Assembly: GCA_035536455.1 (NCBI GenBank)
Contig: DATLOC010000053.1
Span: 135,478 to 199,477, forward strand
Direction of reading: 5' to 3'
Length of the DNA stretch: 64,000 bases
From: Thermoanaerobaculia bacterium
GTDB taxonomy: Bacteria > Acidobacteriota > Thermoanaerobaculia > Multivoradales > UBA5704
Position 1 is the first letter of the stretch. Each line of letters starts with the position of its first letter. Below the pieces are notes generated by a model. It saw nothing but the letters and a program-made list of their open reading frames with translations, did no database searches and was not told where the DNA came from. The translations under genes were made by a program, and so were the position numbers. Below are positions 11,432 to 26,672 of this stretch, in pieces.

Positions 11432-11563
11432 GCCACAGTTCTGATGAGCGCCGCCCCGGGGGCGGCCGCGATACGCGTTGAGCTGGAGAAGAGCCTTACA
11501 GGATTCGCCGCGGGAGTCGAGAGCGTCGCAGGCCGTATGAGCTGCGCATAACTCCTACGGGCG

Positions 11564-13018
11564 TCAGTAGCGCGGGACCGCCGGGTCGACCCGGGTGCTC
11601 CAGGCGTCGATGCCGCCGGCGAGGTTCTTGGCGCGGTCGTAGCCCATGCTCAGGAGGAAGGCGACCGCCTGCGCCGAGCGCATGCCGTGGTGGCAGTGGG
11701 CGACGATGGTGGCTGCCGGGTCGAGCTCGCCCAGACGGTCGCGCAGCTCCTGGAGCGGGATGAGCCGCGCCCCCTCGATGCGCGCGATGTCGTGCTCCTG
11801 CGGGCTCCGCACGTCGAGCACCACCAGGTCGCGCCCCTCGTCGCGCCAGCGCTTGAGCTCCTCGGGCTGCACGTCGAAGTCGTATCCCATCGCCCCCTCC
11901 GGCCGCGGCGCGACGCCGCAGAACTGCTCGTAGTCGATCAGGCCGCGCTGCGTCGGGTGCTCGGAGCAAACCGGGCAGGCGGGGTCCTTGCGCAGCTTGA
12001 GCTCGCGGAACCGCATCTTGAGGGCGTCGAAGAGGACGAGGCGCCCGATCAGCGGCTCCCCCACCCCGACGACCAGCTTCACCACCTCGTTGGCCTGCAG
12101 CGCGCCGATGATCCCGGGCAGCACGCCGAGCACCCCGCCCTCGGCGCAGGAGGGCACCAGCCCGGGCGGCGGCGGCTCCGGGAAGAGGCAGCGGTAGCAG
12201 GGCCCGCGCGCCCCCCAGAAGATCGAGACCTGCCCCTCGAAGCGGAAGATCGAGCCGTAGACGTTGGGCTTGCCGGCCAGCACGCAGGCGTCGTTGACGA
12301 GATACCGGGTGGGGAAGTTGTCGGTGCCGTCCACGACGATGTCGTAGCCGGCGAAGAGCTCGAGGGCGTTCTGCGAGGTGAGGCGGGTCTCGTGCGGCAC
12401 AAGAGTCACGTGCGGGTTGACGTCGTGCAGCCGCTCGAGCGCCGCCTGGATCTTCGGGCGGCCGACGTCCGAGCGGCCGTAGAGCACCTGGCGGTGGAGG
12501 TTCGACTCGTCGACGACGTCGAAGTCGACCAGCCCGAGCTTGCCGACGCCGGCCGCCGCGAGGTAGAGCCCCAGCGGCGACCCCAGCCCGCCGGCGCCGA
12601 TGAGCAGGACGCGCGAGGCCTTGAGCTTCCGCTGCCCCGCCGTCCCCACCTCCGGCATGATGAGGTGGCGGCTGTAGTGGCGGATCTCGGAGGGCTCCAG
12701 CTCGGGAAGGTCCGCGGCTCGCGCCGGCGGCGGCTCCGCCGCCACGCCGCCGGCAATCGACGGCACGATCGAGAGCGCGTCCCCCGCCGCCACTGGCGAG
12801 CGCTCGCGCGCCGCGAGGTAGCGCACGTCCTCGTCGTTGACGAAGACGTTGACGAAGCTGCGCAGGCGCCCGTCGTCGGTGTAGAGGTGGCGCTCGAGCC
12901 CCGGGTGGCGCCGGACGAGGTCGCGCAGCGCCTCCTCGACCGTCGCCCCCTCGACCGCGATCTCCCCCTGCTCGCCGGTGAAGCGGCGGAGCGGGGTCGG
13001 GATGTGGATGGTCGGCAT
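11564..13018 (-). CDS. moeZ: MoaD/CysO-like sulfur-carrier domain (ends ...SIAGG) fused to a MoeZ/MoeB-ThiF E1 adenylyltransferase and a C-terminal rhodanese
   Basis: The N-terminal ~90 aa are a ThiS/MoaD fold ending in GG. E1 motifs GAGGLGS, CYRC...CPVC. Rhodanese active-site CHHGMRS. Confidence 0.8.
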   Translation of the reverse strand: MPTIHIPTPLRRFTGEQGEIAVEGATVEEALRDLVRRHPGLERHLYTDDGRLRSFVNVFVNDEDVRYLAARERSPVAAGDALSIVPSIAGGVAAEPPPARAADLPELEPSEIRHYSRHLIMPEVGTAGQRKLKASRVLLIGAGGLGSPLGLYLAAAGVGKLGLVDFDVVDESNLHRQVLYGRSDVGRPKIQAALERLHDVNPHVTLVPHETRLTSQNALELFAGYDIVVDGTDNFPTRYLVNDACVLAGKPNVYGSIFRFEGQVSIFWGARGPCYRCLFPEPPPPGLVPSCAEGGVLGVLPGIIGALQANEVVKLVVGVGEPLIGRLVLFDALKMRFRELKLRKDPACPVCSEHPTQRGLIDYEQFCGVAPRPEGAMGYDFDVQPEELKRWRDEGRDLVVLDVRSPQEHDIARIEGARLIPLQELRDRLGELDPAATIVAHCHHGMRSAQAVAFLLSMGYDRAKNLAGGIDAWSTRVDPAVPRY

Positions 13019-13040
13019 CGGTGTCTCCTACTCCTACTCC

Positions 13041-13523
13041 TTAGGGTGCGCTCTCGCTCCGCTCGGGCACCGGCGGACCGGCCGTGGCACTCTCCTCCGA
13101 CTGGCGCTCGATCGGCTCCTCGACGAAGGCGGAGCGGTCGTCGGCGAGGCGCCAGCTCCGCACCTCGGAGGCCTTGCCGTCGGTCACCGCCACGATCAGG
13201 TACGACACCCCCGGCCAGGCGTTCTCGCGGTCGAACTCGCTCGGCTGCGCCGGGTGGTCGGGGTGCGAGTGGTAGTAGCCGACGATCTCGAGGCCCTCCT
13301 CGCGCGCCGCGCGCTGCGCCGCGAGCACCGTCTCCGGGCCGATGACGAAGCGGTTGCCGCGGCTCTCCTCGCGCTCGTTGTCGGCCGGCACGATCCGCTG
13401 GACCAGCAGCCGCTCACCCTCGGCCTTGCCGAGGAGGATGCCGCAGCACTCCTCGGGGTAGGCCGCGGCGGCGTGCCGCTCGATGGCGGCCAGGTCGGAG
13501 GGCACGAGGACGAGGGCGGTCAT
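13041..13523 (-). CDS. mec: JAMM/MPN+ zinc metalloprotease (Mec-like CysO-processing enzyme)
   Basis: EECCGILLG plus YYHSHPDHPAQPSEFD (JAMM). ATGA overlap with cysM. The track ORF's N-terminal extension is junk. Confidence 0.8.
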   Translation of the reverse strand: MTALVLVPSDLAAIERHAAAAYPEECCGILLGKAEGERLLVQRIVPADNEREESRGNRFVIGPETVLAAQRAAREEGLEIVGYYHSHPDHPAQPSEFDRENAWPGVSYLIVAVTDGKASEVRSWRLADDRSAFVEEPIERQSEESATAGPPVPERSESAP

Positions 13524-14506
13524 GACGGGCTCGCGGGCTCCTCCCAGAAGCGCTCGGACAGGTACTTGTCGGCGCCGTCGCAGAGGACCGTGACCAGCGT
13601 AGCACCCTCGCCGGCGCCGCCATCTCCGCCGGCGGCGAGCCGCGCCGCCAGCCGCAGCGCCGCCGCCACGTTGGCGCCCGACGAGATCCCGGCCAGCACG
13701 CCGGCCTCGCGCGCCAGGCGGCGGACCATGGCTTGCGCCTCCTCGGTCGTCACCTCCCAGGCCTCGTCGGCCAGCGCCGGGTCGTAGATCGGCGGCACGA
13801 TGGCCGAGGCCATGTGCTTCATCCCCTCGAGGCCGTGAAAGGCGCTGTCGGGCTCGACCGAGATCAGCCGCACGCCGGGCGCCCGCTCGCGGAGACACCG
13901 CCCCACCCCCATGAACGTACCGCTGGTCCCCAGGCCGGCGACGAAGTGGGTGAGGCGGCCGCCGGTCTGCGCCCAGATCTCGGGGCCGGTCGAGCGGTAG
14001 TGGGCGCCCCAGTTCTCGGGGTTGGAGTACTGGTCGAGGTAGGCGTAGCGCGCGGGGTCGGCCCCGGCGAGGCGGCGGGCCTCGAGGATGGCGCCGTCGC
14101 TCCCGGTCAGCGGGTCGGTGAGGAGCAGCTCGACGCCGTAGGCGGCGAGGATGCGCTTGCGCTCCGGGCTGGCGTTGGCCGGCAGGCAGAGCGTGACGGG
14201 GATGCCGAGAGCGGCACCGATCATGGCGTAGGCGATCCCGGTGTTGCCGGAGGTGGAATCGAGGAGCCGGCGTGGGCCGCCTGGCGCGAGGAGCCCGCGG
14301 CGGACGGCGTCCTCGATCATGGCGAGCGCCGGGCGGTCTTTGACCGAGCCGCCGGGGTTGGCCAGCTCGGCCTTGGCGTAGAGGCGGACGCGCGGGGACC
14401 CGGTCAGGTGCGAGAGGTCGAGGAGCGGGGTGCGCCCGATGAGGTCGAGCAGCCGGCGCGGCCCCGGGCCGCCGGCGGGCGAGGCTTCGTCCTCGGCCTG
14501 CGTCAT
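13520..14506 (-). CDS. cysM: cysteine synthase, CysM/CysK family (PLP-dependent)
   Basis: GGSVKDRPAL PLP lysine motif; TSGNTG; GTSGT loop. Start MTQAEDEA. Confidence 0.85.
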   Translation of the reverse strand: MTQAEDEASPAGGPGPRRLLDLIGRTPLLDLSHLTGSPRVRLYAKAELANPGGSVKDRPALAMIEDAVRRGLLAPGGPRRLLDSTSGNTGIAYAMIGAALGIPVTLCLPANASPERKRILAAYGVELLLTDPLTGSDGAILEARRLAGADPARYAYLDQYSNPENWGAHYRSTGPEIWAQTGGRLTHFVAGLGTSGTFMGVGRCLRERAPGVRLISVEPDSAFHGLEGMKHMASAIVPPIYDPALADEAWEVTTEEAQAMVRRLAREAGVLAGISSGANVAAALRLAARLAAGGDGGAGEGATLVTVLCDGADKYLSERFWEEPASPS

Positions 14507-14604
14507 GGAGAAGAGAGGAACCGGAGAGAGGGAGCTTCCACCTCCCAAGCTAACAGAGGTCGGCCGCGGGGGCAAGGGGCGGCGCGGCAGGGCCCACGCG
14601 GGAC

Positions 14605-15105
14605 TCAGTTCGCGTTCTTGTCGACCTGCTCGATCAGCGTCTCCGGCCCCGGCAGCGGCGCCACCAGCGCGGCCTCGACCGCCTCCTCCTCGAGCCCCTG
14701 CCGGTCGGAGGAGAGCCGCCAGGCCCGCGTCTCCACCACCTGGCCGGCCGAGATCGCCGTCAGCAGGTAGCTCATGCCCGGGCGCAGCGTCTCGAGCTCC
14801 AGCTCGCTCGGCGTTGCCGTGTCGCCCGCGCGCGCCAGGTAATAGCCGACGACCTCCATCCCCAGTGACTGCGCCTCGTGCGCGGCGGCGGCGTGGGTCT
14901 CGGCCGGGACCGGATCGGCGCCTTGACCTTCGCCGCCGCCGTCGGCCGGCTGCACCGCGAGGATCCGCTCGACGAAGATCTTCTCCAGGCCGTTGCGATG
15001 CGGGCGGCCGATGAGGACGCCGCAGCACTCGCCCGGGTACGTCATAGCGGCGTGGCGGCCGATGGCGTGCAGGTGAGTGGGCGAGATCACGAGATGGCAG
15101 TTCAT
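14605..15105 (-). CDS. MPN-domain protein lacking the JAMM histidines (predicted inactive paralog of Mec)
   Basis: GECCGVLIGR is conserved, but the HSHP-x7-S-x2-D position reads YYLARAGDTATPSELE. Start MNCHLVISP. Confidence 0.6.
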   Translation of the reverse strand: MNCHLVISPTHLHAIGRHAAMTYPGECCGVLIGRPHRNGLEKIFVERILAVQPADGGGEGQGADPVPAETHAAAAHEAQSLGMEVVGYYLARAGDTATPSELELETLRPGMSYLLTAISAGQVVETRAWRLSSDRQGLEEEAVEAALVAPLPGPETLIEQVDKNAN

Positions 15106-15222
15106 ACCCGGTTGCAACCCCTTCTCTCGGAGCGTCGTGGCCAGGTCGGCCACGCGGTTACGCGTCGTCACGGCCGCACTGCAAGAGCAGGGCCAGAGGC
15201 GTTTTCCTCTATCCTGCGCGGC

Positions 15223-15879
15223 ATGGACGACAGCGTCCGCACCGGCGGCGAGCGGGTGCCGCCCGGCCAGTACGTGACCGAGAAGTGGCCGGTCCTCACC
15301 TATGGCCCAGAGCCGCACGTCGAGCCGCGCGAGTGGACGCTACGCCTCTCCGGCCTCGTGGAGGACGAATTGGCGTGGAGCTGGGACGACTTCCAGGCGC
15401 TGCCGCGCGTGCGGGTGACGGCCGACTTCCACTGCGTCACCCGGTTCTCCACTCTCGACAACGCCTGGGAAGGCGTGGCTACCCGCGAGCTGCTGCGCCG
15501 GGCGCGCGTGCGGCCCGAGGCCTCGCACGTCCTCGTCCACTGCTACGGCGGCTACACCACCAACCTCCCGCTCGAGGACTTCCTCTCCGAGCGCGCGCTG
15601 GTGGCCGACACCTGGCGCGGCCAGCCGCTAGCGGTCGAACACGGCGGTCCGGCGCGGCTGGTCGTCCCCCACCTCTACGCCTGGAAGAGCGCCAAGTGGG
15701 TGAGCGGCTTCGAGCTCCTCGACGCCGACCGCCGCGGCTTCTGGGAGGAGAACGGCTACCACACCTACGGCGACCCCTGGCGCGAGGAGCGCTTCAGCTT
15801 CCAGGAAGTCAAAGAGGCCTACCAGGTCCGTCGGCGGGCGAAGGAGCTGGGGCTGGTGCCGGGCCGACCTCCTCGATGA
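15223..15879 (+). CDS. sulfite-oxidase-family molybdopterin-binding oxidoreductase domain protein (MsrP/YedY-like, short)
   Basis: TADFHCVTRFS, GYTTNLPLEDF, YAWKSAKWVSGFELLD — a pattern typical of Oxidored_molyb. 218 aa. Confidence 0.55.
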   Translation: MDDSVRTGGERVPPGQYVTEKWPVLTYGPEPHVEPREWTLRLSGLVEDELAWSWDDFQALPRVRVTADFHCVTRFSTLDNAWEGVATRELLRRARVRPEASHVLVHCYGGYTTNLPLEDFLSERALVADTWRGQPLAVEHGGPARLVVPHLYAWKSAKWVSGFELLDADRRGFWEENGYHTYGDPWREERFSFQEVKEAYQVRRRAKELGLVPGRPPR

Positions 15880-16015
15880 CGTCGCTCTCCGCCGGCGCGA
15901 GGGTGATCGTCAGCGGCCGGCCCACGGCCGCGGCTTCCTTCAAGAGGCGCAAGGACACCTCGAAGGACGGGCGTGCTCTCGGCAGGCGGTAGAAGCGGGC
16001 CGACTCGTAAAACAT
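15809..16015 (-). CDS. small hypothetical protein (MFYESARFYRLPRA...), immediately downstream of 78-bp element copy 1; an alternative start at 16090 encodes a MERMSRREMTVAHVREPPGAD leader
   Basis: Open frame only. It overlaps the 3' end of the convergent Mo-enzyme gene by ~70 nt. Confidence 0.3.
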   Translation of the reverse strand: MFYESARFYRLPRARPSFEVSLRLLKEAAAVGRPLTITLAPAESDVIEEVGPAPAPAPSPADGPGRPL

Positions 16016-16026
16016 GACCTCGACGT

Positions 16027-16104
16027 GATCCGCCCCCGGCGGCTCGCGAACGTGAGCCACCGTCATCTCGCGCCGACTCATCCGCTCCATCCTACGGGCA
16101 GGTG
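16027..16104. repeat. 78-bp element, copy 1 (2 mismatches to copy 2 at 21501-21578)
   Basis: ATCCGCCCC[C/T]GGCGGCTCGCGAACGTGAGCCACCGTCATCTCGCGCCGACTCATCCGCTCC[A/G]TCCTACGGGCAGGTGA. On the minus-strand RNA it folds CGGUGGCUC-ACGUUCGC-GAGCCGCCG. Confidence 0.8.
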
Positions 16105-17048
16105 ACCCCGTTCTTGTACCCGATCAGCGTGCCGTTCGTCGCCGTGTACGACGGATCCGTGGTGAACGTGGTGGTCGAGCCGAAGGCCGGCGTGTAGGCC
16201 GAGCCCGGCTGGATCGAGTACTTCGACACTCTGGCGTGCGGATGGCAAGCGGGGTTCTCCTGCGCGGCCAGCCAACTGCTCAGGAGCACCGGCTTGTCGA
16301 ACATGCCGGGGTCGATGACCATCGCCAGCTCGGCGCTGACGCCCAGCTTCTTGATGGTGATGCGCACCCGCACGAGGGGAGCGACGTGGTACCACCAGGT
16401 CACGCAGCAGCCGCCCCATTTGTTCGCCTGCACCGACAGCCGGTCGAAGTTGTCGACGGCAAAGCTGAACACCTTCTCGCAGCAGTAGCCGTACTGGGTG
16501 GTGATGATCCGGCGCATCTCGTGGGCGCGCGCGTAGCAACCATCCCTCACGTACTGGAACGGGATGCAGTTCGGCACGCCGAACGGCCCCGGCAGGTGAC
16601 ACGACTGTTGCGCGCAGAAGTCGAAGATCGCCTTGGCCGTCGCGTAGTTCGGGACGACGCGCTTGCAGAGCAGGAAGACCGGGATCTTCAGATAGTGCTC
16701 GACGATGTTGAAGGTCGTCGGATCGATCTTCGAGAGGTCGATGTCATGGATCTTCTCGGGCCTCTCGACGTAGGTCCGGCGGCGTTGGAACTCCTCCAGC
16801 TCCACACCGCGGAGGACGTGGATACGCCCGATGAAGCCCCGCCCCTCGTCGAGCTGAGCTTTCACCGGAGCGCCCTTCTCGAAGGCCTCCTCGAGCCGGG
16901 CCGTCGAGGCCTCGGCGGTCCTGGTGGTGGCCGACCGGAAGGTGTAGATCCGCTGCTTCTCGTTGAACAGATACTCGGTCTCCTGCTCGCCCCTGCCCCT
17001 GCGAATGGCGGCGATCGTCAGGAGCTCCTCGCGCGGTTCCCTGGTCAT
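16092..17048 (-). CDS. protein-glutamine glutaminase (protein glutaminase, Cys-His-Asp) with an N-terminal pro-region and no recognisable signal peptide
   Basis: FQYVRDGCYARAHEMRRII...CCEKVF...GGCCVTWWYHVAPLV...VIDPGMF parallels the Chryseobacterium protein-glutaminase catalytic core (…VDGCYARAHKM…CEKQF…CCVAWSYHVA…IIDPSLF). Confidence 0.75.
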   Translation of the reverse strand: MTREPREELLTIAAIRRGRGEQETEYLFNEKQRIYTFRSATTRTAEASTARLEEAFEKGAPVKAQLDEGRGFIGRIHVLRGVELEEFQRRRTYVERPEKIHDIDLSKIDPTTFNIVEHYLKIPVFLLCKRVVPNYATAKAIFDFCAQQSCHLPGPFGVPNCIPFQYVRDGCYARAHEMRRIITTQYGYCCEKVFSFAVDNFDRLSVQANKWGGCCVTWWYHVAPLVRVRITIKKLGVSAELAMVIDPGMFDKPVLLSSWLAAQENPACHPHARVSKYSIQPGSAYTPAFGSTTTFTTDPSYTATNGTLIGYKNGVTCP

Positions 17049-17143
17049 CTCGAGCCTCCTCTTGCCATGGTCCTATGGCGTCCGGACGGCAGGCTGCGTT
17101 ACGCATGCTGAGCCGCTTGACCAGGTGACCACCGGTCACTACC

Positions 17144-19429
17144 GTGAAACGCATGAAAGCGGTTGGGATCAAGCAGCTGCAAGCCCTCGTCCTCGCTTGC
17201 GCCGCTTGGCTCGCCGTGGGCGCGGCACTCGCCGGCGCGGAGGAGGCGCTGGCCGCCGCCGAGGTGAGCGGCACCGCCGTCGGGCCCGGGGGCGAGCCGG
17301 CGGCGGGGGCGGTGGTCGCCGTCGTCGCCGCCCGGCGCAGCGAGCCGTCGGCGGTGGTGGTCGCCGGCGCCGGCGGGGCGTTCGCGGCGACGGTCCCCGC
17401 CGGCACCTACGCCCTGACCGCCACCCATCCGCAGTGGACGGCCGCCTGGTCGCCGCCGGCTGCCGTGAGCGGCAAGGTCGTTCGCGACCTGCGCCTCCTG
17501 GCGCCGGACGAGGGGGTCCTCCTCGAAGGCGACGTCCGCGACTCGACGGGGGCCGCCCTCGCCGGCGCGGAGGTGCACTGCATGCGCACCATCTCCAAGG
17601 GCGACCTCTTCGTCGGCCGCGCCGACGGCGCCGGGCGCTACGCGCTGCGCCTGCCGTCCTCGCCCTACTACGGCTGCCACGCGGCGGCCGACGGGCTGCG
17701 CTCGCCGCTTGTCGAGGTCGACGTCGACGTCGCCGCCGGAGCGGTACGGCGGGACCTGGTGATCCGCCGGCCGGCTCCCCCGCCGCAGGCAGTGGTGGAT
17801 TGGATCCGCGAGCAGGCGATCCCGCTGCTGACGACGCGCGCCGGGCACGGCTTCTCCGACCTGGCGCCCTTGCGCGACGTCGTCGGCGACGCCCGGGTGG
17901 TGGCCCTCGGCGAGGCCACCCACGGTACGCGCGAGTTCTTCCACCTCAAGCACCGCCTCTTCGAGTACCTCGTCGCCGAGCTCGGCTTCACCGTCTTCGC
18001 CATCGAGGCGAGCTGGCCGGAGTCCGAGGCGGTGGACGAGTACGTGCGGACGGGCCGGGGGAACCCCGCCGAGGCGCTCGCCGGGCTGTACATCTGGCCG
18101 TGGAACACCGAGGAGGTGCTCGACCTCATCCGCTGGATGCGGCAGTGGAACGCCGTGCCGGGGCACCGGCAGGTGCGCTTCTACGGCTTCGACGTCAAGG
18201 CCGCCGCGGTGGCGGCCGAGCGCCTGGCGGCGCGGCTCGGGCAGATCGATCCGGCGCTCGCGGCGGAGGCGGGGCCCGCCCTCGCCCGGCTCGCCGCGGC
18301 CGAGCGCGCCGCGCCCGAGCTCGCCGACGCCGACGAGGCGGAGTACCAGGCCGCCGTGGCCGGGGTGGCCGCGGTGCTGCCGCGGATCGCCGCGCGGCTG
18401 CCGCAGCCGGCGTCCGCCGCCGACCGGCAGGCGATCGTCGACCGGCACTACGTGCAGGTGCTCGAGCAGTACACGCGGCTGCGCGGCCCCGGGGGCGGCG
18501 GTCCGGTGCGCGACCGCGGCATGGCCGACAACGTGCGCTGGATCGCCGACGTCGCCGAGCCCGGGTCGCGCGTCGTCGTCTGGGCGCACAACTACCACGT
18601 CAACGTCTTCGCGGAGGGCTCGCTGCCCTGGATGGGCCACCACCTCGAGGCGGCGCTGGGTAAGGACTACCTGCCGGTGGGCTTCCTGTTCCACCACGGC
18701 TCGTTCCAGGCGATGGACCGCACCGGCGGCCCCCGCGGGCTCAAGGAGTTCACGGTCGGCCCACCCGCGGCAGGCACGCTCGAGGACACCTTCGAGCGCG
18801 CCGGCTGGCCGCTCTGCCTCCTCGACCTGCGCCGCCTGCCGGCGGAGGGCCCGGTCGCCGAGTGGCTCCGCGCCCCCCAGCTGTCGCGCGCCGTCGGCTC
18901 TTCTTTCAGCGGCGAAGCCGACATGGCGATGGAGCTGGTGCTGCCCGAGGTGTACGAGGCGGTGGTCTACGTCGAGGCGACGACGAGGGCCCGACCCAAC
19001 CCGCGGTGCAGCCGTAGGACGGGGCGGAGTTCACGTAGCGGGGCTCCGGGGGGTTCCCGGGAGGCGCGAGATGCGGAAGGAACGCTTGCGGATAAGGGAG
19101 CGCGACGTCCGGATAGATCCGCGAGCCGTCCGGATACATCCTCAGCGCGTCCGGATAGATCCGCGGGTCTTCCGGATCTATCCGCGGCGCTTCCGGATGG
19201 ATCTGCGGCGCTTCCGGATCTATCCGCGGGCGGTCCGGATACATCCTCGACGCTTCCGGATATATCCCCCGCGCTTCCGGATCTATCCGCCGCGCTTCCG
19301 GATACATCCGCAGGCCCTGGGGAGATGTCCGGAGGCCTCCCGGCGACCTCCGGAGAGGACGCGAAGAGGTCCTCGCCGCCGCCGGGCTCGTCACGCGGCG
19401 TCGTCAGCTTGCCCAGGAGGGTCCGATGA
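17144..19429 (+). CDS. secreted erythromycin-esterase-family (Ere) hydrolase with two N-terminal CarboxypepD_reg-like domains; the ORF continues in frame through tandem-repeat array A
   Basis: Signal peptide; LGEATHGTREFFHLKHRLFEYLV (Ere motif)...AVVYVEATTRARP; then a LPDLSAA-type heptad tail; stop in ATGA with the downstream ORF. Confidence 0.7.
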   Translation: MKRMKAVGIKQLQALVLACAAWLAVGAALAGAEEALAAAEVSGTAVGPGGEPAAGAVVAVVAARRSEPSAVVVAGAGGAFAATVPAGTYALTATHPQWTAAWSPPAAVSGKVVRDLRLLAPDEGVLLEGDVRDSTGAALAGAEVHCMRTISKGDLFVGRADGAGRYALRLPSSPYYGCHAAADGLRSPLVEVDVDVAAGAVRRDLVIRRPAPPPQAVVDWIREQAIPLLTTRAGHGFSDLAPLRDVVGDARVVALGEATHGTREFFHLKHRLFEYLVAELGFTVFAIEASWPESEAVDEYVRTGRGNPAEALAGLYIWPWNTEEVLDLIRWMRQWNAVPGHRQVRFYGFDVKAAAVAAERLAARLGQIDPALAAEAGPALARLAAAERAAPELADADEAEYQAAVAGVAAVLPRIAARLPQPASAADRQAIVDRHYVQVLEQYTRLRGPGGGGPVRDRGMADNVRWIADVAEPGSRVVVWAHNYHVNVFAEGSLPWMGHHLEAALGKDYLPVGFLFHHGSFQAMDRTGGPRGLKEFTVGPPAAGTLEDTFERAGWPLCLLDLRRLPAEGPVAEWLRAPQLSRAVGSSFSGEADMAMELVLPEVYEAVVYVEATTRARPNPRCSRRTGRSSRSGAPGGSREARDAEGTLADKGARRPDRSASRPDTSSARPDRSAGLPDLSAALPDGSAALPDLSAGGPDTSSTLPDISPALPDLSAALPDTSAGPGEMSGGLPATSGEDAKRSSPPPGSSRGVVSLPRRVR
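19083..19395. repeat. tandem array A: about 11 units of ~21 bp with consensus TCCGGAT-NN-ATCCGCGGCGCT (inverted-repeat core GGAT-NN-ATCC)
   Basis: Read directly: tccggatagatccgcgagccg / tccggatacatcctcagcgcg / tccggatctatccgcggcgct ... Paralogous to array B1. Confidence 0.85.
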
Positions 19430-19660
19430 AAGCCCGTCGTGTCGTCAAAGGCTGCGCCGTCGTGCCGCTGTTGGGCGTTCTCGGGATCGGCGCGCTGTTC
19501 GGCGCGCTCTGGCTGGAGCACCGGAGCAAGACGACGCTGCCGGCGCCCACCGGGCCCTTCGCGGTCGGCCGCGCGAGCTCGGTGTGGGCCGGCGGTCCGG
19601 GGACCGGGCGCGAGCTCGCGGTCTGGATCTGGTACCCGGCGGCGGCGGGCGATCTGATGC
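19426..19660 (+). pseudogene. N-terminal ~78-aa fragment of a PAF-acetylhydrolase/lipase-family alpha/beta hydrolase (truncated)
   Basis: GGAGGG RBS plus ATG. MKARRVVKGCAVVPLLGVLGIGALFG...PTGPFAVGRASSVW...RELAVWIWYPA, then the sequence degenerates. No continuation in any frame before the tyrosinase stop. Confidence 0.45.
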
Positions 19661-19832
19661 GGCTACGGCCGACTACCTGCCCGCTCCCCTGCGCGCGGAG
19701 ATCAAGCGCTCGCGCGGCGCGCAGATCAGCAAGTTCCTGACGCGAGACCTGTCGCGGGTGCGTGTGCACAGCACGCGGGACGCCGCCATGTCGCTGCGGC
19801 GGCGTTCATACCCGGTGGCGGTCCTGCGCGAA

Positions 19833-21281
19833 CTACTGCAGCTGTTCCTCGCGCCTCAGCTTGTCCTGCTCCTCCTTCGGCGGCTGCGGCATGGCGACAT
19901 CGACCGCAATGCTGATTTCACCGACGGTGACGTCGGCGCGCACCTCCGCGGGTAGCGAGCGACCCTGCACTTCGATGCCCGACACCGGCACGAACGTGAC
20001 CTGCAGCTTCGTCGGGTCGCCGGCGGCGCTGATGGCCTTGTCGATCGGGTAGACGAACTCGGCCGGGTGGTAGTGATCCCGCCGCGTCTTGACGCCGGCG
20101 CCGAACAGTCCGAGCACTCCCACGAAATAGGGGCCGGCCGGATCCGGCTTGAGCCCCGCCGGTCCGACATAGACTTCCCAGACGGCGCCGGGCTCTGTGC
20201 TGGCTTCAACCCCCTTCACTTGCAGGACCGCGGTCTGCCCGGGAGCCTTCGCGATTTCCAGAAGGCGCGCACCCATCGCCTTGTCCGCGGCTTCGGGGTA
20301 AAGCGGCAGGCTCACCGGCACCTTCGACAGCCTGAAGGGTTTCGCGATTCGCACGATCACCCTGATATCGAAAATCTCCGGGTCCCAGATGCGCGGGCAG
20401 TACTGCTCGACCTGCGCGGGCTCTCCTTCATAGACGTAGCTGAGCTGCCTGGCCGCGCGCAGAACTTCGCAGCTGGTCATCCTTACTTCCCGGCAGCACT
20501 CGTCGAAGAAAGTGAACGACGTATTGCGCCAGGCCGCATCGCCGAGCGGATTGCTCCGGCCGCCGCCTTGCGCCAGCCACAGGTTCCACTGTCGATCGAC
20601 GTTGGAATGGTGCGCCCAGAAAATGGGATCCTGCGCCGCCGAGCTCACGCAGCACATGTTGCCACTGACCGCGCCATGAACGCTGCCGTGCGGACCGTTG
20701 ATACCGGATTGCGCATTGTAGAAATCGAGGAGCAGGTTCGCGTTCGTAACCGCCGTCCCCAGGGACGTCGAGATCGAACCGGTGCCGTTGTTCATGGCGG
20801 CGTTGCGGCTCGGATCGTGCAGCGCGCTGCCGACGACGCGGAACGCGGGCGGCAACTGGCGCTGCGCGGGATTGGCCCAATCCCAGTAGGGAAGGGCCCA
20901 GTCGTGCATGCGGGAATACTTCCTGACGATTCGTTCGAACCAGTAGAGATACATTCTGTGCCACGACCAGAAGAACTTTGGATCGGTGTGGCAGGTGTTC
21001 CAGGCGGTCTGAACCGGCGTCAGCGTCGTGCCATGAATGGCCGCCTGGTACATCCAGCTGCAAGGATTGCTGGTCGGCAGCGCTCTCATCGCAACGATCG
21101 CGCGGCGGTAGCCCCTGAGAACCGGATCGCTCTCCGCCATCGTGAACGCGTTGCGCCGCACGGTGGGTCCGGCCGCATAGTCGGCGAGCGCAGGAATGCC
21201 GGTGAATGGTTGCGACATCGCTCCCAGCAGGGCGGCGGCGCCGGTCTTCAGAGCGTCGCGACGGTTGAATCGAATGGTCAT
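19833..21281 (-). CDS. tyrosinase (type-3 copper), Tat signal, with a C-terminal lid-like extension
   Basis: MTIRFNRRDALKTGAAALLGA. CuA region HGTT...FFWSWHRMYLYWFERIV. CuB region HGSVHGAVSG...DPIFWAHHSNVDRQWNLW. GGAGGG RBS. Confidence 0.85.
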   Translation of the reverse strand: MTIRFNRRDALKTGAAALLGAMSQPFTGIPALADYAAGPTVRRNAFTMAESDPVLRGYRRAIVAMRALPTSNPCSWMYQAAIHGTTLTPVQTAWNTCHTDPKFFWSWHRMYLYWFERIVRKYSRMHDWALPYWDWANPAQRQLPPAFRVVGSALHDPSRNAAMNNGTGSISTSLGTAVTNANLLLDFYNAQSGINGPHGSVHGAVSGNMCCVSSAAQDPIFWAHHSNVDRQWNLWLAQGGGRSNPLGDAAWRNTSFTFFDECCREVRMTSCEVLRAARQLSYVYEGEPAQVEQYCPRIWDPEIFDIRVIVRIAKPFRLSKVPVSLPLYPEAADKAMGARLLEIAKAPGQTAVLQVKGVEASTEPGAVWEVYVGPAGLKPDPAGPYFVGVLGLFGAGVKTRRDHYHPAEFVYPIDKAISAAGDPTKLQVTFVPVSGIEVQGRSLPAEVRADVTVGEISIAVDVAMPQPPKEEQDKLRREEQLQ

Positions 21282-21500
21282 GTGCGGGTTCCCTCCATCG
21301 AAGGCAGCGGATTGATTGGCGAGAGACGGGCGGGCGGCATCGAGGAGATCGCGTAGCGCCTGCGTCGCGGCAACGCGAAAAGAGCGAGCGACTGCAGACC
21401 TCGACTGGGTCATCTCCGTGTCCCCTGGTGTGCCATTCCATCGCCCGGGTGTTATTGCGCCGATAATAGTCCCGCGTTCGACTGGATCGCAAGTCGCTGG

Positions 21501-21578
21501 ATCCGCCCCTGGCGGCTCGCGAACGTGAGCCACCGTCATCTCGCGCCGACTCATCCGCTCCGTCCTACGGGCAGGTGA
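21501..21578. repeat. 78-bp element, copy 2 (~220 nt upstream of the tyrosinase start)
   Basis: See copy 1. Preceded by a possible degenerate remnant of the glutaminase 3' end (…IEKFTCP*). Confidence 0.8.
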
Positions 21579-21663
21579 ACTTCTCGATCACCCCACAGGC
21601 TGCCCAGAACAGGGCCGCCGCCATCCGCCGCTCGGGACTGGCAACACGCTGTTAGAGCACTAC

Positions 21664-21960
21664 CCGGATAAGGGAGCGCGACGTCCGGATCTATCCGCGA
21701 GCCGTCCGGATACATCCTCAGCGCGTCCGGATCGATCTGCGGGCCTTCCGGATCTATCCGCGGCGCTCCCGGATATCTCCCCAGGCGTTCCGGATACATC
21801 CTCGACGCTTCCGGATATGTCCCCCGCGCTTCCGGATACATCCTCAGGTGTTCCGGGCCTATCCTCAGGTCCTGGGGAGACGTCCGGAGGCCCTCCGGTG
21901 ACCCCGGAGAGGACACGCGGAGCTTCGGCGGCTGCCGGGTTCTCCTTTCGTTCGTTAGGG
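21664..21960. repeat. tandem array B1 (paralog of array A; TCCGGAT-NN-ATCC core, ~10 units)
   Basis: Same first unit ggataagggagcgcgacg and the same unit order as array A. Confidence 0.85.
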
Positions 21961-22019
21961 ATTGAAGGTGCGGACGCTCCGCGACGCCCGCCGAGCGCCG
22001 GCGACCGGCCGGCGCGCGG

Positions 22020-22300
22020 CGCCCAATGGCCTCCGGGAGGCGTGGAACGTCCTGCGGCGGCTTCGGAACCCTTTCCCGGAGCGTGGGAATGGATTGCGCG
22101 GGCCCGGGAACAGGTTGCGGAGCGCCGGGAATCCTTTCCGAGCGGCTCGGAATACGTTCCGCGGCGCGCGCAACTCGTTCCCGGCGTCGCGCAATCGATT
22201 CCCGGCACCGCGCAGGAGGTTCCGGAGGGCGCGCAGGAGGTTCCGAGGTCCCGGGAGGACATAGGGAGGCTCCACCGGGGCGTCTGAGGGTCGCACGGGG
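22020..22300. repeat. tandem array B2 (~12 units of ~21 bp, core GGAA-N4-TTCC)
   Basis: cggaaccctttcccggagcgt / gggaatcctttccgagcggct / cggaatacgttccgcggcgcg / caatcgattcccggcaccgcg ... Confidence 0.8.
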
Positions 22301-22329
22301 ACATTCCGGGGCTTCCGGCGGGCGTTACG

Positions 22330-22560
22330 CCACCTTCTCCAGGGGTTTGTGGGTCGTCGGAGGGAAATCTCGGACGCCCGGAGGGAGATCTCCGAGGGCG
22401 AGAGATAGATCTCCGGCTATGGAAGATGAGTTACGGCGGCTCCGCGAGAGATCCCGGGCGATGGCTGGTTCATCTGCGGAGCTCTGAGACAGGTCTCCAG
22501 GATCCGGAAATGAATCTCCGGCACCCCCGGATACATCTCGGACGGTCCGAGATAACTCGT
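22330..22560. repeat. tandem array B3 (~8 units of ~21-22 bp, core GAGATCTC/GGAGATCTCC)
   Basis: ggagggaaatctcggacgccc / ggagggagatctccgagggcg / agagatagatctccggctatg ... Confidence 0.75.
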
Positions 22561-22645
22561 GCGCCGCCGCGTGAAGCCCCTCCTTCACCTGCTTTTCCTT
22601 ACGCGACCTTCGCCAGGTGCTCCTTGGCGGGCGGGGGGACGGCCC

Positions 22646-23476
22646 CTAGCCAACGAGGAGAGACGCGGCGATCGCTCCGGCGGTGGCGACCAGGCAGAGG
22701 AGGGCGCCGACGGCGTGGTCGGTGCGCTCCGGCTTCAGCGGGTCGAGCCAGACGGCCGCGAGGTAGCCGCCGGCGAAGCCGCCGAGGTGGGCCCAGTTGT
22801 CCACCCGCGTCGCCACGAGGCCGTAGACGAAGAGCATCACCGCGTACCCCCAGGCCTGGGTGGTGAGGGCGCGGCTGCCGCCGCGGCGGCCGTAGCGCAC
22901 CAGCGCCCCGAGCAGGCCGAAGATCGCCGCCGACGCCCCTACCGTCACCCGCGCCCCGCCGAGGAAGGGGAAGAACGCCGCCACCGCGCTGCTGAGCAGG
23001 AACCCCGTGACGCTGGCGAGGGTGTAGAGGATCACCAGGCGGCCGGCGCCGTAAAACTCGGCGGTGAGCGGCGCGAGCTGGCGCAGCCAGAGCAGGTTGA
23101 AGAAGAGGTGGAGGAGGTCGCCGTGCAGCCAGCCGGCCGAGAGCGGAGTCCACCAGCGGCCGAGCTCGAAGACCAGGATCGAGCCGCTCGCCCCGAAGCG
23201 GGCGAGGGCCTCGGTGGTGGGCGGGAAGATGGAGAACGGGCCGCCCGCCGGCCCCGGCCCGCCGCCGGCGACGAGCGTGGCGGCGTAGAGGACGATGCAC
23301 CCCCCGAGCACCAGCTGCACGAACCCCAGGTCGCCGCCGAAGCGGCGCAGGGCCCCGGCGAAGCCCCACATCCCCGGCCGCAGCCGCCCGCAGTTGAAGC
23401 AGCGCTCGTCGGCGACGCCGACCAACCGGCCGCACGACGGGCAGACGACGGCGCCGGTGCGTTGGCGGCGGAGCAT
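22646..23476 (-). CDS. rhomboid-family intramembrane serine protease with an N-terminal zinc ribbon
   Basis: CPSCG...CFNCG; catalytic GASAAIFGLLGA (GxSG) and AHLGGFAGGYL (His). Confidence 0.8.
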   Translation of the reverse strand: MLRRQRTGAVVCPSCGRLVGVADERCFNCGRLRPGMWGFAGALRRFGGDLGFVQLVLGGCIVLYAATLVAGGGPGPAGGPFSIFPPTTEALARFGASGSILVFELGRWWTPLSAGWLHGDLLHLFFNLLWLRQLAPLTAEFYGAGRLVILYTLASVTGFLLSSAVAAFFPFLGGARVTVGASAAIFGLLGALVRYGRRGGSRALTTQAWGYAVMLFVYGLVATRVDNWAHLGGFAGGYLAAVWLDPLKPERTDHAVGALLCLVATAGAIAASLLVG

Positions 23477-23504
23477 GCGCCTACTCTAGAACGGCGCGGG
23501 GGAG

Positions 23505-26500
23505 CTACAGCGGCTCGGGCTGCGGTTGGGAGGCCGGCTCGCCGCCGGCGACCGGCCGCCGGCCGCGGCGGAGGGCGGCGACGACGGCGTCGCGGGCGTC
23601 GTCGAAGAGGGTGTAGAAGACCGGCACGACGAGGAGGGTCAGCAGGGTGGCGGTGGTCATGCCGCCGATCAGGGTGAAGCCGAAGCTGGTGTAGGAGAGG
23701 CCGATCGAGTTGGAGCCGCCGACGGTGAGCGGGACCATGCCGCCCATCGTGGTCAGCGCCGTCATCATGATCGGGCGGAACCGCCGCTCGGTGGCGAGGA
23801 GGAGGGCCTCGCGGCGCGGGTGCCCCTCTTCGCGCAGGCGGATCACGCAGTCGATCAGCACGATGCCGTTGTTGACCACGACGCCGATCAGCAGCACCGC
23901 GCCGACGAAGCCCAGGACGTCGAGGTCGAGGCCGGTCGCGGCGTGCATCCAGACGACGCCGATCGAGGCCAGCGGGATGGTGAGCACGATCGACAGCGGC
24001 AGGATGAAGCTCTCGAAGAGGAACCCCATCAGCAGGTAGACGAAGACGATCGACAGGAGCCCGGCGAAGAGGAGGTTCTTCATCTCCTCGTCGCCGCCGG
24101 CGCGCTCCGGCGGGGCGCCGAGCGAGATCCCCTCGGGCAGGTCGAGCACCGCGGCGAGGGACTCCAGCCGCTCGCGCGTCTCCTTCTCCTTGCCCTCTTG
24201 CATCTCGACGGTCACCGGCCGGGCGACGCGCTGGTCCTCGCGCTGGATGCGGCGGGAGGCGGGGAGGAAGCGAACGTCGGTGAGCGCGGCGAGGGGGACG
24301 ACCCCCGTCGCGGACGGCACCTCGAAGCTCGCCAGCTCCGAGAGGCTCTCGCGGTCCTCCTCCTCGAAGCGCACCCGCACCGGCACCTGGCGGCCGTCGC
24401 GCTGGTAGCGCGGCAGCGCCTGGCCGCGCAGCGCGTAGCCGACGACGCCGGCGATGACCTCGGGGTCGACGCCCTGGCGCTGGGCGCGGGCGCGGTCGAC
24501 GACCAGCGCCAGCTCGTCGGGCGGGCGCTCGCCGGCGCGGCGCACGCCGAGCACCCCCGGCACCTGCGCGAAGAGGGCCTCGAGCTCCTCCGCCGTCTCC
24601 TCCAGCGCCGCGGCGTTCTCGCCGTAGAGGGTGACGGCGTGCACGCCCTCCTCCTTCGCCTCGTCCTCGGCCTGGTCGCCGGTGAAGAGCTTGAAGCCGG
24701 GGCGCTCCGGCAGCGCCGCCATCACCCGCTCCGTGGCCTCACGCGACGTCACGCCGGCGGTGGCCGGCTGGGTGAACCAGCCCTCGATCTCGCCGTAGGT
24801 GGCACGGTGGAAGAGGAACCAGCCTTCCAGACCCAGCTCCTCCTTGAGCCCTTCGACCGTCTTCTCGGCCTGGAGGAACCAGGCCTCGGCCTCCTCCAGC
24901 GTCGTGTTGGCCGGCATCTCGACCGCGATCCCCCAGCCGCGCGCCTCGCTCTCCTGGGTGGGTGAGAACTTGACCCGCTGCTTCGCCACGGCGCCGGTCG
25001 CCGCCAGCACCAGGAGGAGCCCGAGCACCACGTCCAGCCGCCGCCCGAGGGCCACCGCCAGGAGCGCCGTGTAGCCGCGGTTCAGGCGCCCGAAGGTGCC
25101 CTCGTAGAGGCGGGCGAGGAGGACTTCGACGCGGCGCCAGGCCCGCCGGTGCCCCGGCTCCGGCGCGGCGCCGTTCTCGCGCTGCGCCGGCAGCGTCAGG
25201 TAGACGGCGAGCGGCACCGCCACCAGCGCCACGAGGAGCGAGGCCAAGAGCGCCACCGAGACCGGGATCGAGAGGCGGAGGAGGAAGAACTGCCCTTCGC
25301 CCTCGACCAGCGACACCGGCAGGAAGACCATGACGCTGGTGAGGGTCGCCAGGGTGATGGCGAGGGCGATCTCGCCGGCACCTTCGAGGCAGGCCTGCCG
25401 CCGCGGCACGCCCGCGAGGTGGAGGCGGTGGATGTTCTCGGCGACGACGATCGAGTTGTCCACGAGCATCCCGACCGAGATCATCAGGCCGAGGAGCGAC
25501 AGCACGTTGAGCGTCTCGCCGGCGAAGTACATGACGGTCAGGGCGAGGAGCAGCGAGAGCGGGATCGAGAGCGTGATGATGAGGGTCATCCGCAGCCGGC
25601 GGAGGAAGAAGAAGAGGACCGCGACGGCGATGGCGCCGCCGATGAAACCGCTGTCCACGACCTTCCGCAGCGACTCCAGGATCACGTCGCCCTGGTCGAA
25701 GAGCGGGATCATGCGCACCGTGCGCAGGCGCGGGTCGCGCTCCAGCCGCCCGACCAGGGCGCCGATCGAGCGCGCCACCTCCAGCGTGTTGGCGTCCCCC
25801 TCCTTGAGCACCACCACCGCCACCGCCGGCCGGCTCAGGGCCCGCGCCCGGTAGTTGCGCTCGGCCTCCTCGTAGCGCAGGGTGGCGATGTCGCCCAGCC
25901 GCACGGTCGGGGCGACCGGCCGGCGGGCGAGCGCTTCGAGGTCGGCGTAGCGGGCGACCGAGCGCAGGAGGAGCTTGTCGCCGCCGGCGCGCACGCTCCC
26001 CAAGGCGAGGGTGAAGTTGTCGGTGGCGAGCCGGCGGCCCAGCTCGTAGATGTTGAGCCCCGCCGCCTCGGTGCGGTCGCGGTCGAGCTCGATCAGGATC
26101 TCCTTCTCCTCCAGGCCGTCGGTCTCGACCGCGGCGACGCCGTCGATCCGCTGCAGCGGCAGGACGACGCCGTTCTGGATCAGGTTCCAGGCGTCGGTCA
26201 GCTCCGGATCGACCGCCAGGCCGAGGACGTAGACCGGCACGCCGCTCTCGTCGTGCTTGCGGATGAAGATGCGGTCGGCGTCGCGCGGCAGCCGGGCGCG
26301 CGCGCGCTGCACGCGGTCGCGCACCTCGCGGTAGGCGACGTCCATGTCGCTGCCCGGCTTGAAGGCGAGCCCGATGCGGCCGAAGCCGGGGACCGCGGTC
26401 GAGTCGAGCCGGTCGAGGCCGCGCACCGTCGCCAGCTCCTCCTCGAGCGGCAGGACGATCTTCTCCAGCACCTCCTCAGGCGGCGCGTCGGACCAGGGGA

Positions 26501-26668
26501 CGGAGACGCCGAGGTGCGGGGCGTTGAAGCCACGCGGCAGCAGCTCCAAGGGGATGGCGAGGGTCGCGACCAGCCCCACGACCACCGTGCTGGCGATGAA
26601 GACCAGGACGGTGATGCGGCGGTCGAGGGAGAGGCGCGGCAGCGCTTTCTCCCAGCGCGAGGGGGCGC

Positions 26669-26672
<4 letters not shown>
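23505..26672 (-). CDS. RND efflux transporter, inner-membrane subunit (second of two tandem paralogs, MdtC-like position)
   Basis: 12-TM HAE1-like sequence; GTG start in GTGA overlap with the upstream RND stop. The track ORF 23505..28547 is an over-extension. Confidence 0.8.

Follow-up and report, generated by a model that had tools for sequence, protein, structure and literature searches.

Results

The esterase frame and its normal stop

An open reading frame on the forward strand of the window (the whole 64,000-nucleotide stretch of DNA that was analyzed) raises the question of whether an array of 21-bp DNA repeats, a relative of which lies upstream of a tyrosinase gene, has been co-opted as the C-terminal tail of an esterase, or whether the esterase gene has lost its real stop codon. 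Both possibilities had been offered by a sequence-only reading of this DNA, which had noted that the esterase frame has no stop after the catalytic domain and ends in overlap with the start of the next ORF. We found that the ORF (17144-19429) is open throughout the array and yields exactly the peptide quoted in that reading, and that its TGA (19427-19429) overlaps an ATG (19426-19428) preceded by AGGAGG, as described. The presence of an array in the 3' tail of this ORF was likewise borne out, and chance does not account for it: against 0.37 expected matches of CGGATNNATCC the window has 22, always within 19110-19310 and 21686-21843, and TRF gave a period of 21 for both stretches, counting 9.7 copies at 19108-19311 and 7.6-8.9 at 21684-21869. 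The 758-aa ORF from 17153 is NCBI HVF61179.1 of a Thermoanaerobaculia MAG. The features of the locus are listed in Table 1.

Table 1. Features of the esterase-rhomboid locus, in window coordinates.
Feature	Position	Strand	Basis or remark
Erythromycin-esterase-family gene as relatives end it	17153..19017	+	ancestral stop TAG 19015-19017
Single-base deletion site	19003..19004	+	orthologues CCGCCGG, window CCGCGG (DNA alignment with L027, L001, L028, L029)
Frameshift-generated ORF extension, 141 codons, 'LPDLSAA' tail	19004..19429	+	no genuine coding region
Interspersed element copy A	19029..19381		nhmmer profile E=4.5e-112, alignments of copies
3.26-kb segment absent from two closest relatives (L027, L001)	19382..22645		synteny alignment
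Pseudogene, N-terminal ~135 codons of ~400-aa PAF-acetylhydrolase-like alpha/beta hydrolase	19426..19832	+	homologue search
Tyrosinase gene	19833..21281	-	Pfam Tyrosinase, PPO1_DWL; probable start 21281
Interspersed element copy B1, same orientation as A, upstream of tyrosinase	21609..21935		nhmmer E=1.9e-83, alignment
Second repeated intergenic block B2, degenerate 21-bp TTCCCGG-type units	21957..22322		TRF rows 22077-22253
Rhomboid-family gene, convergent with esterase	22646..23476	-	L027 gene call PF01694, synteny

The esterase carries a signal peptide, a CarboxypepD_reg domain and an Erythro_esteras domain, and the whole Erythro_esteras profile of Pfam was matched, the match ending at residue 613 (~nt 18982). 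Twenty close orthologues (66-95% identical) were read for their C-termini. They stop at or a few residues past ...TTRARPNP, with 15/20 ending in ...RARPNPPxxP and the other five ending at RARPNP, a few residues from it, or in short unrelated endings; a conserved heptad or other repeat tail after the PF05139 domain was found in none of the 20. At the DNA level, all five aligned loci (the window, L027, L001, L028 and L029) have the TAG in the same column, and the four relatives read CCGCCG-xTG-xAG-CCG-TAG up to the stop, giving the normal ending ...RARPNPPxQP-TAG. The window lacks one C at ~19003, four codons upstream of the retained TAG, which is out of frame for this reason, and the loss is uncompensated before the ancestral stop, the next indel lying at ~19061. 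When the missing C is restored, the esterase reads RPNPPVQP followed by the stop. A missed in-frame stop before 19083 was also looked for; the frame of the ORF contains none, and the TAG is present out of frame.

Reality of the single-base deletion

Since the window presumably is a short-read assembly, we lean towards a real event and infer that the deletion is probably present in the cell. Single-base indels are rare in short-read assemblies, and the record is a TPA MAG. The other indels between the window and L027 over 13.8 kb are mostly compensated pairs, multiples of three, or outside the ORFs examined, so that the assembly does not appear indel-prone, and a change that swaps only the last four residues would be under weak selection and could persist. 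If instead the deletion is an assembly or consensus error, the living cell stops the esterase at the TAG and makes no tail; this is the less probable outcome, though a considerable possibility. The extra C is present in all nearest relatives (92-95.5% nt identity), the independent same-strain Logan contigs L033 and L034 stop short of 19003 and leave the site uncovered, and P0122, from the assembly of a near-identical genome, has a frameshift that is absent from the sibling assembly P0001, indicating that such errors do occur at the esterase locus. The frameshift in P0122 is independent of that in the window and also leads into the same array.

Coding character of the ORF extension

In the tail, GC3 was 0.62 compared to 0.956 in the gene body, and the CAI-like index was 0.21 compared to 0.78. 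Differences from L027 were distributed over the three codon positions as 12/13/13 in the tail, without third-position bias, versus 13/12/41 in the gene body. Inside the tail, 1-nt indels relative to L027 are found at ~19060 and 19373, and two 20-bp units in the L001 array break the frame there. Among 101 units, conservation was not codon-periodic, and the conserved third positions include the T of GAT and the A of CTA/ACA. The PDxSAxL frame of the tail is stop-free in 7/10 copies of the array, with stops in L003, L009 and L019; most frames of most copies are stop-free, the other frames on both strands being equally open, and the chance of 141 open codons at this base composition is ~0.055. A tail-only search among 5.8 billion proteins returned no related protein, and its one match, P0121, proved to be a false lead whose DNA (L032) is an unrelated, AT-richer 21-bp repeat. 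A peptide encoded by the tail is, for example, LPDLSAALPDGSAALPDLSAGGPDTSSTLPDISPALPDLSAALPDTSAGPGEMSGGLPATSGEDAK.

It is highly improbable that a DNA repeat was co-opted here into a genuine C-terminal heptad-repeat domain under selection. The open frame of the tail, which most copies share, the equivalence of a 21-bp period to seven codons, and the known cases of interspersed repeats extending gene 3' ends (PMC3184786, PMC3049150) are in favor of this reading, but the absence of the tail from orthologues, its GC3, the lack of third-position bias, the frame-breaking indels, the equal openness of the other frames and the empty protein search are against it. The available comparisons argue strongly against such a domain and point to an accidental 141-codon run. 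Of the two possibilities offered at the outset, the loss of the real stop therefore stands, since there is a 1-nt deletion upstream of a conserved TAG, and co-option as a tail is not supported; the proposal that one DNA family is coding at this locus and intergenic at another holds in name only.

Structure and spread of the repeat element

The array belongs to an element of ~355 bp, in which ten 21-bp units are flanked by a left module of ~80 bp and a right module of ~65 bp; in copy A, the left module lies at 19029-19107, the units at 19108-19317 and the right module at 19318-19381. The 21-bp unit core of array A is TCCGGATnnATCC, and the palindromic core of each unit is GGATnnATCC (4+2+4). 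Each unit follows directly on the one before, only 8 variable bases separating the cores, and the spacing is almost always exactly 21 bp. There are 10 units in seven copies, 11 in L001 and 9 in B1 (21684-21872) and L019, and the copies show positional, unit-by-unit homology. The left module also contains a hairpin, CTCCGGGGGGTTCCCGGAG.

The sequence-only reading had regarded A and B1 as diverged duplicates with a common unit order. In the pairwise alignment they were 82.7% identical over 272 bp, with one unit fewer in B1; 'ggataagggagcgcgacg' precedes both arrays (19090-19107 in A, 21666-21683 in B1), and the unit order and ~60 bp after the array are common to both. A single DNA family and its divergence were thus upheld, but not a local duplication, because copies in another genome match A better (88%) than B1 does (83%). 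A and B1 both belong to a dispersed family whose ten-unit layout is older than its spread, and part of their resemblance looks like later gene conversion.

At least 12 copies from five sources were collected (two in the window, and L027, L001, L003, L005, L006, L009, L011, L015, L019 and L004). Every one of them lies between genes, in some cases filling the space that separates a convergent pair. A strict two-unit pattern search found six loci in OY969474.1, and further copies were present in other MAGs and metagenomes. The neighbors include esterase, rhomboid, acyl-CoA dehydrogenase and DUF4440 protein genes as well as IS elements. The element is absent at some orthologous loci (L028, L029-31), and the homology of the window with the element-free loci L028 and L029 ends at ~19021. 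Inspection of 8-10 copies aligned at their ends, and of the L028 boundary, showed neither terminal inverted repeats nor target-site duplications. A CRISPR array was rejected, the units being contiguous with no unique spacers of similar length; binding-site arrays of transposon ends were also rejected, as A and B1 are direct rather than inverted, with about ten units each. A search for two phased cores in viral contigs gave 0 matches. This repeat family seems to be undescribed so far.

The segment between the esterase and rhomboid genes

Window positions 11160-19381 correspond to L027 2-8229 and positions 22646-28275 to L027 8234-13863, both at 95.5%, and the alignment with L001 shows the same break; in both relatives the rhomboid stop codon lies immediately next to the right end of the element. 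The hydrolase fragment, the tyrosinase gene and B1 all lie within a segment of 3.26 kb that is missing from the two closest relatives, and GC is 0.64-0.66 at 20001-22000 compared to ~0.73 around it. A simple origin of this segment by A/B1 recombination, as the insertion of a circle or as a deletion in the relatives, was rejected because the locus in the relatives has no B2 and because B1 does not adjoin the rhomboid stop. B2 is 91% identical to L005 1-365, from a relative's genome. The tyrosinase has a TAT-type signal peptide (by eye) and a CAI-like index of 0.45, and an identical 482-aa protein is encoded on the independent Logan contig L033.

An exhaustive HMMER search with the ORF that follows the esterase found 311 homologues matching only query residues ~3-76, at their own N-termini. 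Full-length homologues are 350-411 aa and carry PF03403 (Pfam), while Pfam gave no match to the 104-aa ORF itself. The frame is shifted near 19655, beyond which P0146 keeps matching the other frame of the window to ~19830 (by eye), and the sequence is then cut off by the 3' end of the tyrosinase gene. By these homologies, the ORF is a dead fragment of a PAF-acetylhydrolase-like gene.

Possible roles of the element

Between orthologous copies, differences were seen at 4/110 sites in the cores and at 21/100 outside them (p=9e-5), and the same CCGGATnnATCCGG core recurs, with different flanks, in 21-bp arrays of unrelated contigs. Since these contigs share the core and not the flanks, there is a hint that core and phasing matter. 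A 20-bp array with a different palindrome was also observed in the window, upstream of ctaD (57655-57874).

Our best guess is that the ten palindromes, all on the same face, serve as a docking array to which a dimeric DNA-binding protein binds, and that the element bearing them spreads or is retained at sites where an insertion does no harm. The full proposal, that the element is a selected docking scaffold of ten operators on one helix face, bound by a putative dimer and reused at many intergenic sites of Thermoanaerobaculia, and that it is mirrored by the unrelated CCGGATnnATCCGG-core 21-bp arrays and by the array upstream of ctaD, is rather doubtful; the analysis identified no binding protein for the element. 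If it were true, the arrays would be a so far undescribed class of chromosomal site array, serving perhaps in insulation between convergent genes or in nucleoid organization.

It is quite possible, if somewhat short of an even chance, that the element is purely selfish or neutral and has no host function, its core conservation reflecting gene conversion and shared ancestry. The copies are scattered between genes, the left module of one is broken by an IS256-type transposase gene and another has an IS3-type gene ~0.8 kb away, some orthologous loci lack the element, A and B1 show signs of conversion, and the position between convergent genes is also that of REPs (PMC3184786). On the other hand, the terminal inverted repeats and target-site duplications were not seen, the unit-by-unit positional homology indicates little homogenization, and the same core recurs in unrelated arrays. 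The core conservation could stem from gene conversion rather than selection, and the constancy of about ten units and the strict phasing may be inherited from a founder copy.

A role as RNA (a structured 3'-UTR, a terminator or an sRNA) rather than as an array of DNA sites is unlikely. In several copies (window A/L027/L001, L009, L019 and L005) the start lies only a few bases from a stop codon, the element folds better than shuffled sequences (z = -4.3 on the + strand and -3.3 on the - strand), and in the right-module hairpin GAGGAC...GTC(C/T)TC pairing is kept via G-U on the + strand only (by eye). However, both strands fold about equally, as expected of palindromes, the hairpin of each unit is by our own reading only 4 bp, and RNAalifold gave a covariation term of +1.35 for ten copies, which is no support. 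The element lies in mixed orientation relative to the neighboring genes, a promoter/terminator scan found nothing in copy A, including no T-run terminator, and an Rfam scan of 18800-22800 (E<=1) returned three chance-level matches only (miRNA and sucA-II, E 0.58-0.94).

Discussion

Very probably, array A is a non-coding copy of a ~355-bp interspersed element, and the esterase tail is an accidental run-on caused by the loss of one base. In this lineage the element fills the gap between the convergent esterase and rhomboid genes; after the loss of one C in CCGCCGG, a ribosome would pass the TAG out of frame and enter the element, whose GC richness, period in a multiple of three and units stop-free in that frame account for the long run, ending at a TGA whose overlap with the start codon of the dead hydrolase fragment is fortuitous.

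The deposited HVF61179.1 (758 aa) thus carries a spurious or accidental tail of 141 residues, and another version of this artefact, 1032 aa long, is found in a sibling assembly; in 73% GC genomes, a long ORF that crosses a repeat is not to be taken for a domain. Given a real deletion, translation of the tail is well possible, and the tail could develop into a nascent extension; on the docking-scaffold reading, this would be a disordered protein tail caught in the act of being born from such an array. The apparently undescribed repeat family, with its unusually regular ten phased palindromes, comes from a poorly studied acidobacterial class; exchange between its copies is seen, and the tyrosinase-bearing segment sits beside one copy. 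If a binding protein exists, the arrays would be an easy handle for finding it.

Interspersed repeats of the BOX and ERIC/MITE types extend or fuse with gene 3' ends (PMC3184786; PMC3049150), and the present case is similar in that an intergenic repeat open in several frames, as BOX elements are on both strands, becomes the nominal C-terminus of a neighboring gene. It differs from those fusions in that it arose from a frameshift in the gene and not from insertion of the repeat, the relatives carrying the element after an intact stop. The element further resembles the Streptococcus BOX (boxA - boxB(n) - boxC) in having conserved end modules around a tandem short internal module, and in its many dispersed intergenic copies, clustered with other repeats and with IS elements nearby. 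However, it has no sequence relation to BOX, its units are 21 bp with a palindromic core rather than the 45 bp of boxB, its unit number is nearly fixed (9-11) where that of BOX is variable, no terminal inverted repeats were found, and its host is a 73% GC acidobacterium. Unlike a MITE, it shows neither terminal inverted repeats nor a target-site duplication at its ends.

REP/BIME sequences tend to lie behind genes or between convergent ones, are hit by IS insertions, and include docking sites for gyrase, IHF and Pol I (PMC3184786); REP units are 20-40 bp hairpins in alternating orientation, often with GTAG/CGTC tags (PMC3733652). The element shares GC-rich palindromic tandem units with those of Enterobacteria and Pseudomonas, but its units are direct repeats with a 4+2+4 palindrome, strict 21-bp spacing and no tag. 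The MIRU of mycobacteria are tandem units in the intergenic DNA of a high-GC genome, with open frames that touch flanking stop and start codons (PMC3184786). The present array is alike in all of this, whereas MIRU are 40-100 bp, variable in number and inside operons, and the overlap with the next start is accidental here and involves a pseudogene. Iteron and centromere-like arrays (F sopC, R1 parC, plasmid origin iterons) are present once or twice per replicon and adjoin rep or par genes. The element, unlike these, is found at six or more places on the chromosome, and no rep, par or regulator gene is linked to it; like these, it is built of about ten helically phased direct repeats, each with a short inverted repeat.

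Loss of the esterase stop codon

The sequence-only reading was confirmed in what it observed: the reading frame of the erythromycin-esterase-family gene (HVF61179.1, deposited for a Thermoanaerobaculia MAG) spans array A, in which ten 21-bp units built on the core TCCGGATnnATCC follow one another without gaps, and its translation yields the heptad peptide that had been described. That reading offered two explanations, a DNA repeat co-opted as a protein tail or the loss of the real stop. The Pfam erythromycin-esterase match covers the full profile, with its last residue at 613, and 20 of 20 close orthologues examined (66-95% identical) terminate shortly past this domain. Fifteen of them end in ...TTRARPNPPxxP, the remainder either terminate at RARPNP or no more than a few residues from it, or have short unrelated endings, and none of the 20 carries a heptad tail. 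The DNA was compared with four orthologous loci, L027 (95.5% nucleotide identity, fully syntenic), L001 (92%), L028 (93%) and L029 (83%), all of which read CCG-CCG-xTG-xAG-CCG-TAG where the window reads CCG-CGG-TGC-AGC-CGT-AGG, one C being absent from the window at ~19003. The invariant TAG is kept in the window, out of frame, and restoring the missing C gives RPNPPVQP followed by the stop. Of the other indels in the 13.8-kb alignment of the window with L027, the majority occur as compensated pairs, have lengths divisible by three or lie outside the ORFs examined; the deletion at ~19003 has no compensation ahead of the ancestral stop. These results confirm that the stop was lost, and the esterase tail is ordinary.

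A different frameshift was found in P0122, a 1032-aa protein of the P0001 cluster encoded on a 1.1-Mb contig from another assembly of a near-identical genome. P0122 is identical to P0001 (620 aa, sibling assembly, normal stop) as far as ...EATTRA, after which it runs through that array, likewise in the PD frame, and then along the antisense strand of the next gene, a rhomboid gene. Since this frameshift also yields read-through of the array, any slip here leads to a long ORF. The chance of 141 open codons, the length of the tail, is ~0.055 at this base composition, and most of the six frames are stop-free in most copies of the repeat element, including copies that no gene reads into.

Within the ORF, GC3 is 0.956 for the gene body but 0.62 for the tail; the corresponding values of a CAI-like index are 0.78 and 0.21. 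Counted by codon position, the differences between the window and L027 number 13/12/41 for the gene body and 12/13/13 for the tail, which also contains single-base indels relative to L027; in the L001 array, two 20-bp units break the frame. Conservation computed over 101 units from 11 copies showed that unit positions 1-8, 10-13 and 15 are conserved, including would-be codon third positions (T of GAT, A of CTA/ACA/AGA), while would-be first and second positions vary freely. A tail-only search of 5.8 billion proteins returned one weak match, the DNA of which is an unrelated repeat. Overall, judged by these signatures, the tail is unlike coding sequence, and with heptads in none of the 20 orthologues the co-opted protein tail was rejected.

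Features in the window and at related loci
Feature	Locus	Position	Strand or setting
Gln_deamidase_2 gene	window	16092-17048	minus
Esterase ORF	window	17144-19429	plus
Ancestral esterase gene	window	17153-19017	plus
Out-of-frame TAG	window	19015-19017	
Tail	window	19004-19429	plus
Element, copy A	window	19029-19381	
Array A units	window	19108-19317	
3.26-kb segment	window	19382-22645	
Element, copy B1	window	21609-21935	
B1 units	window	21684-21872	
B2	window	21957-22322	
Further ~21-bp units	window	22340-22560	
Cytochrome oxidase subunit I (by eye, ORF translation)	window	start 57516	minus
20-bp array	window	57655-57874	divergent region
244-aa membrane protein	window	start 57933	plus
Transposase gene	L005	4830-6217	
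Antitoxin-like ORF and PIN-domain toxin gene	L028	2177-2870	
21-bp CCGGATGCATCCGG-core array	L016/L021	~1664-1830	intergenic
21-bp CCGGATGCATCCGG-core array	L025	9383-9616	intergenic
21-bp CCGGATGCATCCGG-core array	L022	4906-5354	intergenic

An interspersed element

Alignment and an nhmmer profile defined an element of ~355 bp in which ten units are flanked by a left and a right module, with strong matches at copies A and B1 and in L027, L001, L003, L005, L006, L009, L011, L015 and L019, and a weaker, partial match in L004. A pattern scan of reference genomes located the array in one complete Acidobacteriota chromosome, OY969474.1 (six loci), as well as in other MAGs from Thermoanaerobaculia and Acidobacteriota, and a metagenome scan added two further copies. 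The copies are intergenic in every case and of mixed orientation with respect to neighbouring genes, and for several the start lies only a few bases from a stop codon. The copy shared by the window, L027 and L001 exactly fills the gap between the convergent esterase and rhomboid genes; it is absent from the orthologous loci L028 and L029-31, where homology to the window stops ~four bases past the stop codon. In L005, an IS256/Mutator-family transposase gene lies inside the left module and the first 40 bp of the element are present again beyond the insertion; an IS3-type gene lies ~0.8 kb from the L011 copy. Neither terminal inverted repeats nor target-site duplications were seen at the element copies. 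The units are positionally homologous across copies, most of which have ten, and therefore the ten-unit layout is older than the dispersal and no homogenisation of the arrays is under way; the ATGTCC variant occupies unit 8 in L027, L001, L003 and L011 and the corresponding unit 7 in B1. This is a genuine repeat family that has apparently not been described before, and it is best classed as a new bacterial interspersed repeat family.

In L028, a small antitoxin-like ORF and a PIN-domain toxin gene take the place of the element after the esterase stop and the upstream glutaminase gene is also absent, indicating that the esterase locus is often rearranged.

Arrays A and B1 and the segment between the convergent genes

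The CGGATNNATCC core occurs 22 times in the window (0.37 expected), confined to array A and B1, both of which lie between ggataagggagcgcgacg on the left and tggggagaYgtccggaggcc...ccggagaggac on the right. The two align with 82.7% identity across 272 bp and have their unit order in common, B1 being one unit short with nine. Since A is nearer to the L006 and L011 copies of another genome (88%) than to B1 (83%), B1, on these identities, is not a recent duplicate of A. At 31 sites A differs privately from a state common to L027 and L001, compared with 6 and 11 differences private to L027 and L001, respectively. Fourteen of the 31 agree with B1, and six of them, grouped into three small clusters, are found in A and B1 but in none of the other closer copies used for comparison (L027, L001, L003, L006 and L011), a pattern that points to gene conversion between A and B1, 2.5 kb apart. 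Such exchange would help explain why non-core array positions differ between orthologues (21/100) more often than four-fold degenerate sites (109/1380, 7.9%); core positions differ at 4/110 (core versus non-core, p=9e-5).

The 3.26-kb segment, comprising a hydrolase pseudogene, the tyrosinase gene, B1 and B2, is missing in the two closest relatives, L027 and L001, whose copy of the element reaches right up to the rhomboid stop codon; the right junction of the segment lies exactly at that codon. Because its GC is lower (0.64-0.66) and the codon usage of the tyrosinase gene (minus strand, after the hydrolase fragment, in a lower-GC stretch) is poorer than that of the esterase, the segment was probably acquired or relocated. 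The TGA of the esterase ORF does overlap an ATG preceded by AGGAGG, as the sequence-only reading had noted, but the next ORF is not a working gene: it corresponds to the N-terminal ~75 codons of a PAF-acetylhydrolase-type hydrolase of ~400 aa, then frameshifted and cut off at 19832, and the overlap is therefore coincidental. In the same strain, the adjacency of tyrosinase gene and hydrolase fragment was confirmed on an independent Logan contig. P0129 (100 aa), from a related genome, is the same fragment with additional frameshifts, so the pseudogene predates this strain.

B2, a repeated block of degenerate 21-bp TTCCCGG-type units after B1, is 91% identical to L005 1-365, at a different locus of a relative's chromosome, where it again lies upstream of a secreted-protein gene; B2 is possibly a promoter or leader block that can move. 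More ~21-bp units follow it (cores GAGATnnATCTC / GGAAATGAATCTCC), and the 1.36 kb from the tyrosinase start to the rhomboid stop is built throughout of such periodic units. Elsewhere in the window, the Gln_deamidase_2 gene lies in a low-GC stretch (0.646) and differs from L027 at 2 of 156 four-fold sites; this divergence of 1.3%, against 8-11% in neighbouring genes, suggests a recent exchange between lineages.

Possible function and comparison with known repeats

The conserved unit pattern consists of half-sites GGAT and ATCC flanking a free dinucleotide, with a 21-bp period equal to two helix turns, and looks like a site array for a putative dimeric DNA-binding protein. Unrelated metagenome contigs contain 21-bp arrays with the CCGGATGCATCCGG core and flanks that differ from the element, one of them bordered by convergent genes, another following an SLT-domain gene and a third following an FG-GAP gene (names assigned by eye, SLT from translation). 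A role as RNA is less likely: the element has no match in Rfam, RNAalifold on ten copies gave a covariation term of +1.35, which is no covariation support, and the hairpin of a single unit would be 4 bp only. Given the half-sites phased at 21 bp, the CCGGATGCATCCGG core in unrelated arrays and the RNA results, we favour a putative protein-docking array carried on a repeat that would survive where insertions do no harm, and consider a purely selfish or neutral repeat about as likely.

A second phased array in the window, unrelated to the 21-bp array, consists of ~11 20-bp units that all contain the palindrome CCGTTACCGTAACGG and lies in the ~415-bp divergent region separating the cytochrome oxidase subunit I gene from that of the 244-aa membrane protein; with this period it cannot be coding. 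Several families of phased palindromic arrays thus appear to be in use in this genome.

Interspersed repeats that nominally extend the 3' ends of genes are documented (PMC3184786, PMC3049150). The closest layouts are those of pneumococcal BOX and REP/BIME. Like the element, BOX has end modules around a tandem internal module, but its variable module number and terminal inverted repeats are lacking here. REP/BIME clusters are likewise palindromic, occupy gaps between convergent genes and serve as targets for IS elements, whereas REP has alternating hairpin units with GTAG/CGTC tags that the element does not have. Iteron and centromere arrays share the phased palindromic direct repeats of the element, which lacks the genes linked to such arrays.
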